A stretch of DNA of 32,000 nt. Origin: an archaeon (GTDB lineage Archaea > Iainarchaeota > Iainarchaeia > Iainarchaeales > CSSED10-239). The number at the start of each line of letters is the position of its first letter. Within the stretch, counting starts at the first letter, position 1. The DNA lies in NCBI GenBank assembly GCA_035400625.1, contig DAOMZT010000001.1, forward strand, positions 210,001 through 242,000. The letters are read 5' to 3'. The notes under the pieces are model-generated. The model saw only the letters and a list, made by a program, of their open reading frames with translations. It ran no database searches and was not told where the DNA came from. This document shows positions 14,364-27,084 of this stretch, piece by piece. Made by a program: the position numbers and the translations under genes.

Positions 14364-16091
14364 TTAAATCCGTTTAAACATTTTTTCTAATTCTTTTCTA
14401 TTTAGTAAAAGGTATGTTGGTCTTCCATGAGCGCAAATGCCTTTGTCTTTACATTGATCTAATCTTTCAATAAGTTGATATATTTGAGAGATTGATAATT
14501 GCTCATTTGCTTTTATAGATTCTTTACAGGATTTTAATTTCAAGATCTTTTCTTTTATTCTGGACAAATCAAAATCTTTTGTATCTTCAATTTCATTTAA
14601 GATATTTAAAAAAAAGGTGTGGTCGAAATAATGCTCTAAAAATTCAGGAATGGTTGTAAGAATAAAGGTGTTATCTTTTGATTCTATTGTAAAGCCTAAG
14701 CTTAATAGCAGAGATTTATTTTGTTTTATAAATTCTTTTTGAGATTCGGAAATAAAATCTAGTGTTTTTGGGATCACTAAAGACTGGACTTTAAATTCTG
14801 ACTCGTAGAGGCGCCTATTTTTTTCTAGATTTATCCGCTCTTCTGCTGCATGTTGGTCGATAAGAAGCAATCCTTCTGGAGTTCTGCAAACTATAAATGT
14901 TTCAAAAAGCTGCCCGATTATTTCTCTAATCTCATAATTGGAAAGATATGTTTTTTTTATGTTGCTTACAGGTGGAGAGAGTGTTGATTGAACATTATTG
15001 TCGCGTAATTGGTATATTATTTCAGGGATTTCTGATTTTAATATATTTGCGTTTTTTTCTGTTTCTTTGTCGTCCAAAAAATAATGCAAGTTCTGAGAGG
15101 TACTTGCTGGTTTTTGCTCATGATCGCTTTTAGGAAACAGGGTATTTTCAATAATTTCTTTAAGCTTTAGATTAAATATAAATTCGTTTTGAATCTTAAC
15201 CAGTCTTTTTTTGGGGTGAACATTAACATCAAGAGTTTTTGAGTCTAGCTCTATAAATAAAACAAAAAATGGTTTTTGCTGAACCATTAAGTAATCTTTA
15301 TAGCATTTTTGAATTAACTTGCTAATTGATGTACTATAAACCGCCCTTTTATTAATATAAAGATAATTGCTAGGGTAAAAGAAATAGTTATTTGGCTTTG
15401 TGATTATACCTTTGATTTTTAGAAACTCATTTTTTGCATCTATTTTTTCGACTTTTGTTAAAATGTCTTTTCCAAAAATTTGCTCGTACCTTTTATCTTG
15501 AGTAGTACTTGAAAATATTTCATCTTTTTTTTCAGAATTAAAATGAAATCTAATATCAGGGTATTGAATTACAAACTCCAAAAAAGTATTATATAACTTT
15601 GAAAATTCCTGCGCTTTTGATTTTAGAAATTTCTTTCTTACAGGCACATTATAGAAAATATCTTCAACTTTAATTGTTGTTCCCTTTGGGCAAGCAACAG
15701 GAAAAGTCTTGCCTTCTTTTAAAACGTAACCTTTGCCATTTAAATTATCTGCAGAAGTTATTTCTAATTTAGATATTGCATTTATACTAGCTAATGCCTC
15801 TCCCCTAAAGCCAAAAGTGTCAAGATTATAAATATCATCAATATTTTCGAGCTTGCTTGTTGTGTGTCTTTGAGTACATATTTTCAAATCATCTTCTGAA
15901 ATCCCAGTGCCATTATCTTTTATCTCAAGTAAATCAACACCCGAATTTCTGATTTTTACTGTTATTTCTGTGGCATTTGCATCTATTGAGTTCTCTAATA
16001 GCTCTTTTAATATATCGCTAGGAGATTCAATTACTTCTCCTGCACTTATCAAGTTTATAGTTTCTTGATTTAATTTTTTTATGGTTTTCAA
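14364..16091 (-). CDS. mutL: DNA mismatch repair protein MutL (GHKL ATPase)
   Basis: The N-terminus LISAGEVIESPSDILKELLENSIDANAT is GHKL motif I. GFRGEALASI is also present, and the C-terminal domain includes CAHGRPT. The apparent TTG start at 16091-16089 overlaps the mutS TGA (sequence cTTGAaa), which suggests translational coupling. Confidence 0.92.
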   Translation of the reverse strand: MKTIKKLNQETINLISAGEVIESPSDILKELLENSIDANATEITVKIRNSGVDLLEIKDNGTGISEDDLKICTQRHTTSKLENIDDIYNLDTFGFRGEALASINAISKLEITSADNLNGKGYVLKEGKTFPVACPKGTTIKVEDIFYNVPVRKKFLKSKAQEFSKLYNTFLEFVIQYPDIRFHFNSEKKDEIFSSTTQDKRYEQIFGKDILTKVEKIDAKNEFLKIKGIITKPNNYFFYPSNYLYINKRAVYSTSISKLIQKCYKDYLMVQQKPFFVLFIELDSKTLDVNVHPKKRLVKIQNEFIFNLKLKEIIENTLFPKSDHEQKPASTSQNLHYFLDDKETEKNANILKSEIPEIIYQLRDNNVQSTLSPPVSNIKKTYLSNYEIREIIGQLFETFIVCRTPEGLLLIDQHAAEERINLEKNRRLYESEFKVQSLVIPKTLDFISESQKEFIKQNKSLLLSLGFTIESKDNTFILTTIPEFLEHYFDHTFFLNILNEIEDTKDFDLSRIKEKILKLKSCKESIKANEQLSISQIYQLIERLDQCKDKGICAHGRPTYLLLNRKELEKMFKRI

Positions 16092-18508
16092 GTGGTATTA
16101 CCTCTCTCTATACTTCTAAGAAAAGAATCGTTTTCTAGATCCTTTTGGATTTTTAATGCCCTATCAATTATTTCGTTGTTAATTCCTGCAAGTTTTGCTA
16201 CTTGTATACCGTAACTTTTGTTTATGCCCCCTTTTTGAAGTTTATGATAGAAGTGAATATTATTTCCTTCTTCTTTTGCTGTAACGTGATAATTGTTTAT
16301 GCCTGAAAATAATTCTGACATTTTGTTTAATATATGATAATGTGTTGCAACTAATGTTTTGCAACCAATTTTTTCATTTAAGTATTCTACAACAGACCAA
16401 GCAATACTTATGCCATCATATGTACTTGTTCCTCTACCAAGCTCATCAAGGATTACAAGACTATCTTTTGTAACATTATTTAAAATATAAGCGACTTCAG
16501 ACATCTCTACAAGAAAGGTACTTTAGCCATGTGTAATGTCGTCAGACGCCCCAACACGAGTAAAGATGGCGTCTATTTTGCCTATTTTAATACTTGATGC
16601 CGGAACAAAACAACCAGTGTGTCCAAGAATTAGTGCGAGACAAACACTTCTCATATAACTGCTTTTCCCTGCCATATTTGGACCTGTAATAATCATGGTT
16701 CTGTTTTTAGAATCCATATAACAATCGTTAGGAACAAAGGCAATTTGTCTCTCAATCAAAGGGTGCCTCAATTCAGTTATTTCAAGCACATCTGAATTAT
16801 TTAGTTCTGGTTTGTTGTAATTGTTTTTATAACTTATATATGCAAAAGAATAGATTTCATCAAGTTCTGCTATTTGTTTTGCAATTTCTCTAATAGGTTC
16901 TTGATATTTTAATATTTCTTTACACACCTCAAAAAAAAGATGATATTCTAGTTCTTCTCTTCTTTCTTTTGCATGCATAACAAGAGATTCTTTTTCTGAT
17001 AATTCTAATGTAGTATATCTCTCACAATTAACAAGCGTTTGTTTTCTTTCAAAATATTCAGGGACACAATTTATTTGAGATTTAGGTATTTCTATATAGT
17101 AACCAAACACTTTATTGAATTTTAGTTTTAAAGATTTAAGATTTGTTTTTTGGCGAAGATTTGCTTCGTATTCTGAAAGCCATTTATTGGTTGATTTGTT
17201 TATATTCACTATATCATAAAGTTCTTTAGAGTAACTTGGTTTGATAAATCCCCCTTCTCTAATACTTATTGGCGGTGAATCGACAATTGCAGAATCTATT
17301 AAGTCTACAATCTTATCAAGATGTTGTAGTCTTTCTTTAATTTCATGAAGTTTAGGGGAAGTTGTTTCTGAAAGTACTATTCTTATACTAGGTATTACTT
17401 GTAAACTTTGCTTTAAGCCTATCAAATCTCTTGGATTACAATTGCCAAAGCCAATTTTACTAATTATTTTTTCTAAATCGCCAATATATGAAAGGTTTTG
17501 AGATAGCTCTTCTTGCAAAAATTGGTTTTCTTTAATTTCAGAAACAGCATCGTAGATTTTTAAAAGTTCAGATTTACCTGTCAATGGATGTAGTAGATCA
17601 AAATATAATTTTCTATAACCTAATGCTGTCTTTGTATTATTTACAATGTCAAAAAGTGTGTGTTGAGTGGTTCCGTCTTTGAGATTTGAAACAATCTCTA
17701 GATTATTTGCTGTCTTTCTGTCTATTCTAATATATTTTGTTAAATTATATTCTTTTATATTATTAATATAAGATAATGACATGAATTGAGTGTCTTTAAG
17801 ATATTTTATTGCATTATAGCAAGAGATAAAAACTTCTTCTTTGTTTATGCCAAATGAAGAAAATAACAATCCAAAATGTTCTTGTAATTTTTGTTTAGAC
17901 AAATCATGGTCAAGATTGTCTGTATAATTAATAATTACATTTGGTATTGTTTTCTTTAAAAGATTAATTTGATCAACATCATTTAATATGTTTCTAGTAA
18001 TAATTAATTCTTTTGGTTTAATTAGAGACAATTCATTTAGAATTTCATTAAAGCTTTCGAAATTGTTTGCTTTAAAATCTCCTGTTGTTATATCTATTAA
18101 AGAAAAACCACAATAGTCTTTTAACCGCGATATAGAACAAAGATAGTTGTTATCATAGGTTTCTGAAAAAATTGTGCTAGGTGTGACAATCCTTGTAACT
18201 GCCCTTTTTACTAAACCTTTAGCAAGTTTAGGGTCTTCTATCTGTTCACAAATTACTACTTTTTTACCTGCCTTTATTAACTTAGATATATAAGGGTCGA
18301 TTGCATGATATGGGATTCCAGCTAATGGAGCTTCGGTCGCGCCCTTACCTCTTTTTGTTAATGTGATATTTAGAATAGAAGAAGCGATTTTTGCATCATC
18401 ATAAAACATCTCATAGAAATCTCCTGCTCTAAATAACAATATTCCATCAGGAAATGCTTTTTTAGTTTCCAGATATTGTCTCATCATCGGAGTTAAATTT
18501 CTATCCAT
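16088..18508 (-). pseudogene. mutS: DNA mismatch repair protein MutS, interrupted by one in-frame TAA (16525-16523); fragments 16523-18508 and 16088-16504/16522
   Basis: The gene starts MDRNLTPMMRQYLETKKAFPDGILLFRAGDFYEMFYDDA (mismatch-binding domain). Walker A (GPNMAGKSSYMRS) lies in the upstream fragment. The reading ...RVGASDDITHG-TAA-STFLVEMSEVAYILNN...LVILDELGRGTSTYDG is collinear with the conserved MutS G-x-STF-x-x-EM and Walker B region. The ORF-track start at 18562 overlaps tRNA-Phe, so the ATG at 18508 was chosen instead. Confidence 0.88.
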
Positions 18509-18537
18509 GATTTCTTTTCTTTTAAAATTAGTAAATA

Positions 18538-18611
18538 TGAGACTGGTGGGATTTGAACCCACGACACATAGGTCTTCAGCCTATTGCTCTCCCAGGCTGA
18601 GCTACAGTCTC
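18538..18611 (-). tRNA. tRNA-Phe (GAA)
   Basis: The reverse complement is GAGACTGTAGCTCAGCCTGGGAGAGCAATAGGCTGAAGACCTATGTGTCGTGGGTTCAAATCCCACCAGTCTCA. It forms a 7-bp acceptor stem, a GTTCAAATC T-loop and the anticodon loop CTGAAGA. Confidence 0.9.
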
Positions 18612-18626
18612 AAAAATTTACCAATG

Positions 18627-18700
18627 TGAGCCCGATGGGATTTGAACCCACGACACCAAGATTAAGAGTCTTGTGCTCTACCAAGCTGAGCTACGGGCCC
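18627..18700 (-). tRNA. tRNA-Lys (CUU)
   Basis: The reverse complement is GGGCCCGTAGCTCAGCTTGGTAGAGCACAAGACTCTTAATCTTGGTGTCGTGGGTTCAAATCCCATCGGGCTCA. The anticodon loop is CTCTTAA and the cloverleaf pairs throughout. Confidence 0.9.
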
Positions 18701-18711
18701 AATTGGCGAAT

Positions 18712-18785
18712 TGAACCTGGAGGGATTTGAACCCTCGACACCGGGATTAAAAGTCCCGTGCTCTACCAAGCTGAGCTACAGATCC
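18712..18785 (-). tRNA. tRNA-Lys (UUU)
   Basis: The reverse complement is GGATCTGTAGCTCAGCTTGGTAGAGCACGGGACTTTTAATCCCGGTGTCGAGGGTTCAAATCCCTCCAGGTTCA. The anticodon loop is CTTTTAA, and the acceptor stem contains two G-U pairs. Confidence 0.88.
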
Positions 18786-20053: not shown

Positions 20054-20166
20054 ATAAAAAATATTATTTTTATTGAATTTTCAAAATAGAATTTATTTAT
20101 ATTTCTTTTGTATAATAGATATATTATAACCTTCAAGAAAAACTAATTATTTGTGTTTTATCTAAT

Positions 20167-20241
20167 AGCGGGGTGGGGCAGTCTGGAGTGCCCGTCGGGC
20201 TCATAACCCGAAGGTCGATGGTTCAAATCCATCCTCCGCTA
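20167..20241 (+). tRNA. initiator tRNA-Met (CAU), archaeal type
   Basis: The sequence is AGCGGGGTGGGGCAGTCTGGAGTGCCCGTCGGGCTCATAACCCGAAGGTCGATGGTTCAAATCCATCCTCCGCTA. It has an A1:U72 terminal pair and three consecutive G:C pairs (GGG/CCC) closing the anticodon stem, which are archaeal initiator hallmarks. The anticodon loop is CTCATAA. A T5 tract follows at 20244-20248. Confidence 0.9.
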
Positions 20242-20401
20242 TATTTTTGAATTAAAGGATTTTTTAATCGTTTTTCTAACTAATTTACAACCTTATTTTT
20301 AATTAAAAATCTACTAAATCTTGGACACAATTAACAATTTTAATAAACACCAAAATAAAGCGAGAAAATGTAAAAAAACAGCTATTTTTCTAAATATTTG
20401 A

Positions 20402-23896: not shown

Positions 23897-26890
23897 ATGG
23901 CTACTAACCAAATAATCAATAGAAATGAGGAGAAAATCCCATATAATATATTCAAAATAAAATTAGCTATTCTTAAGGCTCTTGATGCAATAGACAACCC
24001 AGATATTGATCTTGCTGATTATTTAACAAAGAAAGTTGATAGAATATTATCACAAGAATACTTTGAAAAAGAAAAGTTACCAACTATAGATAATATTCAA
24101 GATATTATAGAAGACGTTTTGATTAAAGAAGGCTTAACAAAATTAGTAAAAGCATATGTAATCTATAGAAAACAACATGATGATTTAAGACAAATGTCTA
24201 AATTAATAGACAGCATAAATGCGGTTGAAAGTTATATTAATATTTCTGATTGGCAAGTTAAAGAAAATAGCAATATGGACTATTCTCTTCAGGGCCTAAA
24301 TAATTACTTGTCCACAAAAGTAATTTCTGATTATTGGATAAAAAAAATATATCCTCCAGAGATTAAAGAAGCACATGAGAAAAGACAACTACATATTCAT
24401 GATCTAAATACTTTAGGTCCTTATTGTGTTGGTTGGGATCTTCAGTCTTTACTTCAAACAGGGTTTAGAGGAGGGCCTGGTAAAATTGTTGCTGCTCCTC
24501 CAAAGCATCTGGATACTGCTCTTGGGCAGATTGTAAATTTTATATATACATTACAAGGCGAAGCTGCAGGTGCCCAAGCATTTAGTAATTTTGATACTCT
24601 TCTTGCTCCATTTATTTATTATGATAAACTAGATTATAAGCAAACTAGAGCAGCCATAGAAAAATTTGTATATAACATGAATGTTCCAACAAGAGTGGGT
24701 TATCAATGCATGTCTGAAGATACAGAAATATTAACAGAAGAAGGTTGGAAAACACATGATGATATTAAGGTTGGAGACATAATTAAAACATTTAATATTA
24801 AAACAGGAAAGATAGAGGATTTGCCTATTAAAAAACTATTTGTTAGAGAATATTCTGGCAAAATGTATAATATAAAAAATAAAATACAAGATCAATTAAT
24901 TTCTCCAAATCACAGAATGGTAAGACAAACATCTAATTCAAAAAATAAATTTGTATTAGAAGAGGTAGAAAAAGTAATGGCCCTTAAATCGCCAATAATA
25001 CTGCCTATCGCGGCAGACACAAACTATAAAGGCATAGCTTGGAGTGATGAAAAAATTAAACTAGTTGCTTGGCTAATTGCAAGAGGGTGCTCTGAACAAC
25101 CACATCATAAAAATAAAAATTCAAGAAATATAAAAATATACCAATCAGAGATAAAAAACAATAAAGATAACAAAGAAATAAAAAATTTACTAAATCATTT
25201 TAATTTGAAATATTCAGAAAGTAAGCACAAAGCCCTGGGCATGTCAGTTAATTATTTTAAAATTAATGCAGAAGGCTCTAGGTTACTTCATTCTTGGTTT
25301 GATGATGAAAGTGATATTAAATTTATTCCTGTTGATTTATTCAAGGCAAATCAAAAACAAGCAAGATTGTTTTTAGAAACTTATAATAAAGTAGATGGCA
25401 CATCAGAGTTTAAGATATCTACAACTTCTGTTGATATGCTTTATGGCCTGCAGCACATGTGTGTTTTGGCAGGTTATGGTTTTACAACTTGTTTCAGAAA
25501 ACCAACAATTGGTAAGAAACCAATTTTTATTTTAAAAATAATTCAACATAAAGACACTACAATAACTTGTATTAAAGAAGTAAATTACAAAGGAAAAATC
25601 TGGTGTCCAAATACTGATAATGAAACAGTCATTGCAAAAAGAAATGGCAAGGTGTTTATTACAGGTAACACTCCATTTTCAAATATCACTTTAGACTTAA
25701 CAGTTCCTTCAACACTTAAAGATCAAGCAGTGATAATTGGCGGAAAGCCACAAGATAAAACATACGGAGAATTCCAAAAAGAAATGGATATCTTTAATGC
25801 TGCGTTACTTGATATATTTTATGAAGGAGATGCAGCAGGTAACATCTTTTCCTTCCCTATCCCAACAATAAATGTTACAAAAGATTTTGATTGGGATTCT
25901 CCTCTTTCTGATAAATTATTAGAACTTACAATAAAATATGGCACACCATACTTTGCAAACTTTGTTAATTCTGACATGAAACCAGAAGATGCAAGAAGTA
26001 TGTGTTGTAGGCTAAGGCTAGACAATAGAGAATTACAGAAAAGAGGAGGCGGTTTATTTGGCTCTAATCCTTTAACTGGTTCAATAGGTGTTGTTACAAT
26101 TAATCTTGCACAGATTGGGTATCTTGCAAAAACAGAAGAAGAATATTTTGAAAAACTAGGGTATTTAATGGATCTTTCTAAAAAATCTCTAGATATAAAA
26201 AGAAAGATTGTTGAAAAATATACAGATGATGGCTTGTATCCTTATTCAAAATTTAATTTAAAATTAATAAAAGACAGATTTGGAAGTTACTGGAAAAATC
26301 ATTTCTCAACAATTGGACTTCTTGGCATGAACGAGTCTTGTCTAAACTTTTTAGGCGAGCCAATAACAACTCCAAAAGGCAATGTTTTTGCTAATAAAGT
26401 TATGGATTTTATGAGAGAGAGGATACAGAAATACCAAGAAGAAACAGGCGCCCTTTATAATCTTGAAGCAACACCGGGAGAAGGAACAACGTATAGATTT
26501 GCAAGCCATGATAAAGCTAAGTTCCCTTCAATTATTGTTGCAAATGAAGAAAATGTGCAAAAAAATGGAGCACAGCCATACTACACAAACTCAACACAAG
26601 TTCCAGTAAATTATACAAATGATATTTTTGAAATATTAGAATTGCAAGATGAATTACAATGTAAATATACTGGCGGAACTGTGATTCATTTCTTTATAGG
26701 AGAAAAGAAACCATCAAAAGAGGCAATTAAGTCTTTGATTAAAAAAATAACTACAAATTACAAATTACCATATTTTACATTTACTCCGACATTCTCAATT
26801 TGCCCAAAACACGGCTATTTGTTTGGAGAACACGAATATTGTCCAAAATGTGATGCAGAAATTGGTTATTTGTCTAAATCAAAAAATTAA
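23897..26890 (+). CDS. nrdD: anaerobic ribonucleoside-triphosphate reductase NrdD (class III) large chain, with an N-terminal ATP-cone and an intein; lacks the glycyl-radical C-terminus
   Basis: The ATP-cone is INRNEEKIPYNIFKIKLAILKAL...YVIYRKQHD. The NrdD core includes HIHDL, GAQAFSNFDT, TPFSNITLD and FSFPIPT. The C-terminal zinc ribbon is FSICPKHGYLFGEHEYCPKCD. The ORF then ends in a tandem stop, TAA TAA (26888-26893), before any R-V-x-G-Y/F motif. Confidence 0.9.
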   Translation: MATNQIINRNEEKIPYNIFKIKLAILKALDAIDNPDIDLADYLTKKVDRILSQEYFEKEKLPTIDNIQDIIEDVLIKEGLTKLVKAYVIYRKQHDDLRQMSKLIDSINAVESYINISDWQVKENSNMDYSLQGLNNYLSTKVISDYWIKKIYPPEIKEAHEKRQLHIHDLNTLGPYCVGWDLQSLLQTGFRGGPGKIVAAPPKHLDTALGQIVNFIYTLQGEAAGAQAFSNFDTLLAPFIYYDKLDYKQTRAAIEKFVYNMNVPTRVGYQCMSEDTEILTEEGWKTHDDIKVGDIIKTFNIKTGKIEDLPIKKLFVREYSGKMYNIKNKIQDQLISPNHRMVRQTSNSKNKFVLEEVEKVMALKSPIILPIAADTNYKGIAWSDEKIKLVAWLIARGCSEQPHHKNKNSRNIKIYQSEIKNNKDNKEIKNLLNHFNLKYSESKHKALGMSVNYFKINAEGSRLLHSWFDDESDIKFIPVDLFKANQKQARLFLETYNKVDGTSEFKISTTSVDMLYGLQHMCVLAGYGFTTCFRKPTIGKKPIFILKIIQHKDTTITCIKEVNYKGKIWCPNTDNETVIAKRNGKVFITGNTPFSNITLDLTVPSTLKDQAVIIGGKPQDKTYGEFQKEMDIFNAALLDIFYEGDAAGNIFSFPIPTINVTKDFDWDSPLSDKLLELTIKYGTPYFANFVNSDMKPEDARSMCCRLRLDNRELQKRGGGLFGSNPLTGSIGVVTINLAQIGYLAKTEEEYFEKLGYLMDLSKKSLDIKRKIVEKYTDDGLYPYSKFNLKLIKDRFGSYWKNHFSTIGLLGMNESCLNFLGEPITTPKGNVFANKVMDFMRERIQKYQEETGALYNLEATPGEGTTYRFASHDKAKFPSIIVANEENVQKNGAQPYYTNSTQVPVNYTNDIFEILELQDELQCKYTGGTVIHFFIGEKKPSKEAIKSLIKKITTNYKLPYFTFTPTFSICPKHGYLFGEHEYCPKCDAEIGYLSKSKN
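24707..25669 (+). mobile_element. intein (321 codons) with a LAGLIDADG-type homing endonuclease domain, inserted in nrdD
   Basis: The host sequence VPTRVGYQ | TPFSNITLD is interrupted by CMSEDTEILTEEG (block A, Cys1) and ISPNHRMV (block B, T/S-x-x-H). KLVAWLIARGCSE and ARLFLETYNKVDGTS are the two LAGLIDADG-like motifs. The insert ends ...IWCPNTDNETVIAKRNGKVFITGN, and the +1 residue is Thr. The insert is in frame (963 nt). Confidence 0.85.
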
Positions 26891-26919
26891 TAAATAATAA
26901 CAATATATAATATAGTAGA

Positions 26920-26927
26920 AAGGGGGT
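26920..26927 (+). promoter_or_regulatory. Shine-Dalgarno-like ribosome binding site for the small glycyl-radical ORF
   Basis: The sequence is aAGGGGGt, with GGGGG at 26922-26926 lying 8 nt upstream of the ATG at 26935. This spacing is the same as at other genes in the window. Confidence 0.5.
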
Positions 26928-26934
26928 TATAAAA

Positions 26935-27084
26935 ATGGAAACAGGATTAGAAAGTAAAAGACAGAAATGCGAAGTATACTCTAGAGTAGTAGGCTTTGTA
27001 AGAAGAGTTGATGCTTGGAATTACGGCAAGCAAGCAGAATTTAAAGACAGGAAATTATTCAAGGTAGAGGAAAATAACTGTTAA
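26935..27084 (+). CDS. 49-aa stand-alone glycyl-radical module corresponding to the NrdD C-terminus
   Basis: My own translation is METGLESKRQKCEVYSRVVGFVRRVDAWNYGKQAEFKDRKLFKVEENNC*. SRVVGF followed by W-N-x-G-K-x-x-E-F-x-D-R matches the NrdD glycyl-radical signature (R-V-x-G-Y ... WN-x-GK-x-x-E). The candidate radical Gly codon is at 26992-26994. The ORF is in a different frame from nrdD and is absent from the ORF track because it is under 60 aa. Confidence 0.8.
   Translation: METGLESKRQKCEVYSRVVGFVRRVDAWNYGKQAEFKDRKLFKVEENNC

Follow-up and report, generated by a model that had tools for sequence, protein, structure and literature searches.

Introduction

Class III (anaerobic) ribonucleotide reductases carry their radical glycine in a C-terminal R-V-x-G-Y/F ... 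W-N-x-G-K-x-x-E motif that lies soon after a zinc ribbon on the same polypeptide, and the activase NrdG installs the radical there. The glycine loop forms the C-terminus of the polypeptide itself in all single-chain NrdD proteins that have been solved or described with their NrdG (phage T4, 1H79; T. maritima, 4COI/4U3E; P. copri, 8P23; S. thermophilus, 9D3X). Here we analyze a locus of the same family in a 32-kb stretch of an archaeal genome (contig DAOMZT010000001.1; hereafter the window), to which our gene census is limited. The locus shares with the single-chain enzymes the ATP-cone, the barrel, the CCR finger loop, the zinc ribbon, the S-R-V-V-G-Y/F ... W-N-x-G-K signature and an adjacent nrdG, but its glycine loop is encoded as a separate product of 49 residues. 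In T. maritima NrdD, Gly621 is carried by a C-terminal loop that reaches into the barrel and comes to lie beside the finger loop, and the C-terminal domain also includes a zinc site (PMC4493059). For a glycyl-radical enzyme to be activated, its glycyl-radical domain has to flip out of the barrel (PMC12662201); in such enzymes oxygen cleaves the backbone at the radical glycine (PMC13450708).

Essential genes in two pieces whose products reassemble are known from nrdA of Aeromonas phage Aeh1, where an inserted homing-endonuclease gene caused the split, and from the split genes of Nanoarchaeum and DPANN archaea. In comparison with Aeh1, the window has a spacer of 44 nucleotides (nt) without a gene, and its break point is common to bacteria and archaea of many phyla. 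A reading made beforehand from the letters of the window alone (the sequence-only reading) had spoken of genes in pieces; the two-gene nrdD stands, and a homing-endonuclease insertion does not. The split class II reductases NrdJa/NrdJb likewise carry a C-terminal module on a second, adjacent gene, but they belong to the adenosylcobalamin class and the part set apart comprises redox and zinc-finger domains rather than the radical site (PMC9669993).

Small, separately encoded loop proteins are known as spare parts for oxygen-cleaved pyruvate formate-lyase, namely GrcA/YfiD of E. coli and Y06I of phage T4, and the action of GrcA/YfiD on that enzyme is the sole known glycyl-radical repair. Spare-part proteins are known only for formate lyases (Biochemistry 2026 review, PMC13450708), YfiD and Y06I are the only ones validated (JBC 2021, PMC8683613), and whether other glycyl-radical enzymes have spare parts is stated to be unknown (PMC8683613; PMC13450708). 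The 49-codon open reading frame (ORF) of the window, with its own ribosome-binding site and start codon, fits the description of a GrcA-like stand-alone loop module and, as with GrcA/YfiD, its product would presumably be activated by the parent's activase and inserted in the parent's barrel. GrcA/YfiD is homologous to pyruvate formate-lyase, whereas the window peptide matches PF13597 (NRDD) only, with no PF01228 match at E ≤ 0.1; it has 49 residues against 127 and, unlike GrcA/YfiD, is encoded inside the operon, between catalytic subunit and activase. The parent of GrcA also retains a loop of its own, whereas the large ORF of the window has none, so the peptide is the sole radical module and not a backup. 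Our literature search, from which subscription journals were largely absent, turned up neither a split NrdD nor a spare part for NrdD; this result and the explicit statements in PMC8683613 and PMC13450708 agree with the impression in the sequence-only reading that such a split is undescribed.

The divided nrdD gene

The large ORF of the locus, of 997 codons, ends right after its zinc ribbon with two tandem stop codons, TAA TAA. A Shine-Dalgarno-like GGGGG in the spacer ends 8 nt ahead of an ATG at position 26935, where the 49-codon ORF begins in another frame (offset 2). The sequence-only reading had pointed out each of these features, and all are present (Table 1). We propose, with a probability of about 0.75, that the two ORFs encode a genuine two-chain class III ribonucleotide reductase whose radical loop acts in trans and which is kept by selection.

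Both ORFs match NrdD, and their matches are complementary. The large ORF scores above curated cut-offs for class III NrdD (NF006126, 973.6 bits with a cut-off of 548; TIGR02487, 479.2 bits with a cut-off of 326) and matches Pfam NRDD with an E-value of 1e-170, with profile coverage that ends at position 528/562 of Pfam NRDD and 549/581 of TIGR02487. The small ORF covers the last 32 positions of Pfam NRDD (531-562/562, E 4e-9) and positions 549-579/581 of TIGR02487 (E 5e-8); by these scores its match to the NrdD C-terminus, as the sequence-only reading had claimed, is far beyond chance. It reads METGLESKRQKCEVYSRVVGFVRRVDAWNYGKQAEFKDRKLFKVEENNC, with the predicted radical glycine, Gly20 (GGC at 26992-26994), within S-R-V-V-G-F and with W-N-Y-G-K-Q-A-E-F downstream. 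A motif scan found neither R-x-x-G-Y/F nor W-N-x-G-K anywhere in the large ORF, in line with the premise of the sequence-only reading that it holds no glycine motif of its own, and the barrel polypeptide thus lacks the R-V-x-G-Y/F radical glycine that class III reductases carry. A dedicated radical-SAM activase, NrdG, is recognized at the locus by profile match. Judged by their motifs and profile matches, the large and small chains fit the definition of a class III NrdD as a pair, and neither does so alone.

The large chain retains everything up to and including the zinc ribbon. An ATP-cone lies at its N-terminus (aa 5-95), and its catalytic barrel carries a SMCCRL finger-loop motif, predicted to hold the cysteine that becomes the thiyl radical, which a structure-database alignment places on SCCR (Cys329/Cys330) of T. 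maritima NrdD. The query for that alignment was the spliced large chain (see below on its intein) joined to the small chain, and the closest solved structure was 4COI, of which the spliced large chain covered residues 101-609, ending at CPVC. The match halts at the zinc ribbon because the tail of the large chain and the leader of the small one add about 20 residues there; its end locates the break, and does not model docking. The ribbon, C-x2-H...C-x2-C, a predicted metal site, aligns with CPVC of 4COI; beyond it the large chain has no further conserved element. The chain runs on for 12 residues and ends ...FSICPKHGYLFGEHEYCPKCDAEIGYLSKSKN before TAA, whereas (C/T)EVYSRVVGY comes 2-9 residues after the ribbon in fused relatives. 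As placed by these alignments, the break sits in a hinge of about 12 residues between zinc ribbon and glycine loop, with the ribbon left on the large chain; it is this hinge that has to move when the enzyme is activated. Given that the radical domain must leave the barrel for activation (PMC12662201), a break there is structurally plausible. As a speculation, C-D-A-E-I-G-Y in the tail might be a decayed relic of the C-E-V-Y-S-R-V-V-G-Y loop, a segment too short for comparison.

The small chain is confined to the glycine loop and the helix that follows. Where the sequence-only reading had assigned a separate glycyl-radical domain to it, this is right for loop and helix, but the zinc-ribbon part of the C-terminal domain belongs to the large chain. 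Eleven residues are invariant among 39 aligned small-ORF members (S16, R17, V19, G20, R23, W28, N29, G31, K32, E35 and R39), and the small ORF differs from its relatives mostly at synonymous sites, with a ratio of nonsynonymous to synonymous substitution rates (dN/dS, Nei-Gojobori) of 0.09-0.22 that points to purifying selection.

Many small ORFs, and some fused NrdDs, have short tails with cysteines after the glycine-loop helix: ...EENNC in the window (27070..27081), and CGCKN, CGC, CVC, CCC, CC or RCEC elsewhere. These tails are reminiscent of the redox-shuttle cysteines at the C-terminus of class I and II reductases; we know of no examination of such tails in class III enzymes.

The junction in other assemblies and in relatives

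The order large ORF, small ORF, nrdG and class II-like gene recurs with identical stops and spacer in at least six independent assemblies (JGI, NCBI, ENA, Logan), and a public collection lists 119 blocks with the identical 49-residue protein. In relatives whose small ORF is 78-93% identical, the stops, the GGGGG and the ATG are conserved, while length and sequence of the spacer differ through indels that are not multiples of three. The proviso in the sequence-only reading that the junction might be an artefact is thereby answered in favor of the split.

The spacer offers little else. A scan found no terminator-like hairpin between the two ORFs and no excess of promoter sites, although its consensus signals are those of bacterial sigma-70 and say little for an archaeon; Rfam matches in the window are confined to four tRNAs, with none close to the junction. 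An archaeal TATA-like element inside the spacer was considered and dropped, as it is not kept in relatives with shorter spacers.

Homologues of the small ORF are numerous. A word-indexed search returned 406, and the 120 listed are all 37-78 aa long, carry the NRDD Pfam domain and include archaeon, Micrarchaeota and Dojkabacteria among their source names. A small-ORF profile run with HMMER against 1.84 billion cluster representatives (clustered at 50% identity) gave 5076 matches at E ≤ 1e-3 and 2740 at E ≤ 1e-10; 148 of the best 150 are no longer than 95 aa, some of them maybe fragments from contig ends. As far as we have found, split NrdD is abundant in sequence databases yet unnamed and apparently undescribed. 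With 49 codons the gene falls under many length cut-offs, annotation pipelines call it a full reductase or hypothetical, and metabolic reconstructions of DPANN archaea and of bacteria of the candidate phyla radiation (CPR) may score nrdD as truncated or broken.

Distribution and evolution of the split

We surveyed 80 loci, the strongest small-ORF matches in a scan of GTDB species representatives, and classified them by ORF structure and phmmer. NrdD is fused in 42 (one of which, L081, is itself broken upstream of the zinc ribbon) and split right after the zinc ribbon in 27, or 28 with the window, so that the split reported in the sequence-only reading is found well beyond the window. Four loci have a fused NrdD and an extra small glycine-loop gene, and around the small glycine-loop gene of seven others neither NrdD nor NrdG occurs within 4.5 kb on either strand. 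Sources of the split loci are DPANN archaea (Micrarchaeota, Woesearchaeota, Nanobdellota and unclassified archaea), the CPR (Dojkabacteria, Saccharibacteria, Falkowbacteria and other Patescibacteria) and further bacteria (Thermotogae, Anaerolineae, Bipolaricaulota/Acetothermia and Halanaerobiales). Their small ORFs have 38-97 codons, with an uncertain start codon in a few. In 26 of the 28, nrdG comes after the small ORF; in L069 it lies between the large ORF and the small one. The stop may be TAA, TGA or TAG, all three frame offsets occur and the gaps range from -104 to +187 nt, and therefore no recoding mechanism is shared.

Split forms fall in several clades of a rough neighbor-joining tree of the C-terminal half of the barrel, which is indicative only, and one 14-member CPR clade is wholly split. 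The junction sequences are of at least three types. CPR and DPANN members have a tail CPxCDxE(I/V)GY... and a leader ...KRxKCEVYSR; those of Thermotogae and Bipolaricaulota have a tail CPKCDEE(L/I)I... and a longer leader, ...DGxLxLEDGxVIP...AEVYSR; those of Anaerolineae have a tail CPYxHxxE.LAQFGV. From these sequences we conclude that the break was fixed more than once at the same hinge. A fused NrdD of Nanoarchaeota, L013, holds tail and leader within one chain (CPTCDKENNYKEGDAESALKRTKCEVYSRVVGY), and because of this the fission probably took place in an already lengthened linker, or else L013 is a re-fusion.

Two further observations concern how individual junctions are built. In two Thermotogae (L073, L080) and two Bipolaricaulota/Acetothermia (L034, L047) the small ORF overlaps the end of the large one by 17-104 nt, and its candidate starts are GTG or TTG, save for one doubtful far-upstream ATG in L047. 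The arrangement of these four makes translational coupling likely, with a programmed frameshift as a possible alternative. The small ORFs P0255 and P0100 open with a degenerate first copy of the loop (CEVYKARGCDGKY and CEIYAGRRCGGY, respectively) followed by an intact CEVYSRVVGY, a hint that tandem duplication of the nrdD 3' end gave rise to some of the splits.

Stand-alone zinc-ribbon and glycine-loop proteins

The extra and the unlinked small genes belong to an unnamed family of proteins of 90-120 aa that join a zinc ribbon of their own to an NrdD-type glycyl-radical segment. The four extra members (Table 1) and the seven unlinked ones (L026, L036, L043, L061, L074, L076 and L077) have 86-116 residues, a zinc ribbon CHDC...KCxxC and, after it, the consensus P.L.N(F/Y)..(C/T)EVYSRVVGYxRPVxQWNxGKQxEFxDRK. 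At least 120 clusters (90% identity), with lengths of 92-154 residues, came out of a profile search. Their members are annotated as "hypothetical protein" or receive by default the name "anaerobic ribonucleoside-triphosphate reductase"; the family has no model in Pfam or in NCBIfam. The loops of the extra proteins are almost identical to that of the neighboring full-length NrdD, the pair in L025 reading TEVYSRVVGYIRPVAQWNGGKQAEF(D/S)DRKEFK. AlphaFold2 gave a weak model of one stand-alone protein, P0174 (predicted local distance difference test, pLDDT, 61).

The family shares (C/T)EVYSRVVGYxRPVxQWNxGKQxEFxDRK with the window peptide and is likewise encoded by separate small genes, some of them between nrdD and nrdG. 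It differs in having its own CHDC...KCxxC and in occurring with a complete NrdD or unlinked, whereas the window peptide has no zinc ribbon and is partnered by a truncated NrdD. A parent with a loop of its own, as GrcA has, is thus found beside the stand-alone proteins of L025, L046, L058 and L068 and not in the window. By analogy, this family is the closest counterpart of GrcA for NrdD, and its sequences make its members candidate spare parts for class III reductases. To judge from all these matches, glycine-loop modules detached from the barrel are common in the NrdD family, and because stand-alone proteins adjoin a full-length NrdD in four genomes, the idea of a radical loop acting in trans gains support. 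Elsewhere the stand-alone gene is overlapped by a FUR-family regulator gene (L098:4661-5300), lies between a glutaredoxin-like and a hemerythrin gene (L043:2582-5119) or adjoins a dUTPase/dCTP-deaminase gene (L096:3354-4213), neighbors that hint at ties to oxidative stress and deoxynucleotide metabolism.

We tentatively suggest, at somewhat less than even odds, that class III reductases have autonomous glycyl-radical modules of their own, the first outside pyruvate formate-lyase. With the same reserve, such modules might be sorted into three genomic forms: an obligate one, as in the window, where the catalytic subunit has lost its loop and would rely on an exchangeable peptide of 49 residues; an adjunct one, encoded between a complete nrdD and nrdG; and an unlinked one, whose position by a FUR-family or hemerythrin gene in some genomes hints at a link to oxidative stress.

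How the two chains may work together

In the mechanism that we envisage for a two-chain reductase, both chains would be translated from one operon transcript, and the peptide would dock non-covalently in the barrel and bring Gly20 up to the finger-loop cysteine, the position that Gly621 takes in T. maritima NrdD. NrdG would abstract the hydrogen from Gly20, maybe on the free peptide or on a peptide swung out of the barrel, after which catalysis would proceed as in single-chain NrdD. Because cleavage falls at the radical glycine (PMC13450708), oxygen would cost the enzyme no more than its 49-residue chain; it is likely, if unproven, that this chain would be re-made and exchanged and the large subunit spared. 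Such a system would be a built-in counterpart of the action of GrcA/YfiD on pyruvate formate-lyase, with the loop as a consumable that NrdG charges and the barrel borrows. An exchangeable loop is plausible; that exchange or repair is the advantage selected for is a tentative proposal, not quite an even bet. If the loop is exchangeable, oxygen damage would be mended by swapping a small peptide. A natural NrdD with a separate loop gene, together with the stand-alone family, makes the spare-part question directly testable, and the split offers a ready two-piece system for the exit of the loop from the barrel and its re-entry, and for substrate recognition by NrdG.

Alternative explanations

That the true gene is a single fused nrdD, disrupted by a sequencing or assembly error or recently turned into a pseudogene, is scarcely credible. 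A short ORF past a premature stop is typical of an indel, but tandem stops with a change of frame would take several simultaneous errors, and at least six independent assemblies, drawn from four sources, agree on the junction to the letter. Stop, ribosome-binding site and start codon are moreover kept in diverged relatives despite their other spacers, the small ORF is under purifying selection, and 28 species have the same arrangement. Very unlikely, too, is that read-through, a programmed frameshift or protein splicing joins the parts into one chain. Both ORFs do share a frame in L005, L007 and L044, with one or two stops between them, and in Thermotogae and Bipolaricaulota they overlap and the small one lacks a clear ATG. 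The window, however, has TAA TAA, a third in-frame TAA further on and an offset of 2, the small ORF opens with an ATG behind a conserved Shine-Dalgarno-like site, and across the split loci stops, offsets and gaps all vary, with nrdG between the parts in L069. Three specific versions of an altered or interrupted gene were considered and rejected: a split intein or trans-splicing, as the 12-residue tail and the 11-12-residue leader are too short and neither has an intein profile match; a homing-endonuclease or mobile insertion, as the 44-nt spacer has no ORF and the 27 other split loci range from overlap to 187 nt; and programmed recoding, as homologues share no fixed frame relation and no conserved recoding site. 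The small protein might also be a spare part for another, full-length NrdD encoded elsewhere, with the truncated large ORF inactive or otherwise used. Stand-alone glycine-loop proteins do coexist with full-length NrdD in other genomes, and our comparison covers the genome within the window. We nonetheless regard this as unlikely: the large ORF scores well above the NrdD cut-offs and keeps CCR motif, zinc ribbon and ATP-cone, the order large, small, nrdG holds in 26 of 28 split loci, and two nrdD copies would be unexpected in small-genome archaea.

A more serious rival accepts the two chains and disputes exchange and repair alone. Under neutral fission, an ordinary NrdD would be assembled from two chains, with the peptide bound for life and no gain in repair or regulation; the split would persist since the hinge tolerates a break and reduced genomes drift toward fragmentation. 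Split genes are well known and common in DPANN archaea, which fits a neutral origin, and the split is commonest in DPANN and CPR lineages. The linker of L013, holding both tail and leader, would already have been long and probably flexible, and a broken MutS in the same window is fixed across 17 contigs. Against this, the same hinge has been broken, or kept broken, in at least three sequence types, including those of the larger-genome Thermotogae, Anaerolineae and Bipolaricaulota, a 14-member CPR clade is entirely split, and neutral fission alone leaves the stand-alone glycine-loop proteins alongside intact NrdD unexplained. We consider it a possibility of real weight, though somewhat less likely than not. 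Returning to a two-chain reductase kept by selection, several points besides the commonness of split genes in DPANN archaea weigh against it. A second full-length nrdD possibly lies outside the 32 kb; the MutS gene, broken by an in-frame TAA, shows breakage without obvious benefit; AlphaFold2, given the small ORF with 39 homologues, predicts a single short helix at low confidence (pLDDT 68); and the 28-in-80 figure overstates the frequency of the split among all NrdDs, the loci having been preselected by their match to the small ORF.

Other features of the window

Table 1. Coordinates of the nrdD locus in the window and of extra glycine-loop genes at other loci
Feature	Position	Strand	Evidence or remark
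nrdD large ORF, 997 codons	23897..26890	+	NrdD profile matches; ends with TAA
Intein, 321 residues, aa 271-591 of nrdD	24707..25669	+	Precise absence in relative L091
Zinc-ribbon coding segment, C969-P-K-H972 ... C982-P-K-C985	26801..26851	+	Read from sequence
Tandem stops TAA TAA	26888..26893 (26888-26890, 26891-26893)	+	Also in independent assemblies L085-L090
Spacer, AT-rich, 44 nt	26891..26934	+	Shine-Dalgarno-like GGGGG at 26922-26926
Small ORF, 49 codons, glycine-loop chain	26935..27084	+	Pfam NRDD 531-562/562
nrdG, radical-SAM activase, 222 aa	27102..27770	+	TIGR02495 NrdG2, 177.3 bits (cut-off 131)
Divergent class II-like ribonucleotide reductase, ATP-cone, 683 codons	27785..29836	+	Pfam Ribonuc_red_lgC, E 1.3e-53
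Extra glycine-loop genes, between complete nrdD and nrdG or beside NrdD	L025:4634-4921, L046:4315-4626, L058:4657-4932, L068:4650-4937

The large ORF also encodes an intein, which is unrelated to the split and whose removal by splicing would leave a large chain of 676 residues. It begins with Cys, ends ...GN before a Thr and lacks the usual penultimate His, and intein N-terminal profiles match it weakly. Its extent is given by L091, a relative 94.7% identical over the exteins that lacks exactly those 321 residues and whose large subunit of 676 aa has the same C-terminal end as that of the window. Homologous inteins occupy the same NrdD site in Dojkabacteria, Aenigmatarchaeota and Paceibacterota, which suggests intein movement between CPR and DPANN.

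Directly after nrdG lies the last gene of the cluster, for a class II-like reductase that scores far below the cut-offs of the NCBIfam NrdJ models (214 with a cut-off of 961, and 201 with a cut-off of 400); its placement is kept in relatives L085-L093.

The MutS gene (16088..18562, - strand) is interrupted by a single in-frame TAA within the conserved G-x-STF, at a junction reading ...GASDDITHG-TAA-STFLVEMSEV.... A 679-codon ORF encodes domains I-IV and the first 56 of the 188 positions of domain V, and a 138-codon ORF encodes positions 65-188. The break is repeated in 17 contigs of other assemblies, and the gene is a pseudogene that has become fixed or else another split gene of this genome.

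Four tRNA genes, for Phe-GAA, Lys-CTT, Lys-TTT and Met-CAT, lie at 18537..18785 (-) and 20166..20242 (+). The genes near them encode aTrm56, TFIIE-alpha, an Elp3-like radical-SAM/GNAT protein, TYW3, DUF373 and CDC48, a set that fits an archaeal genome of DPANN type.

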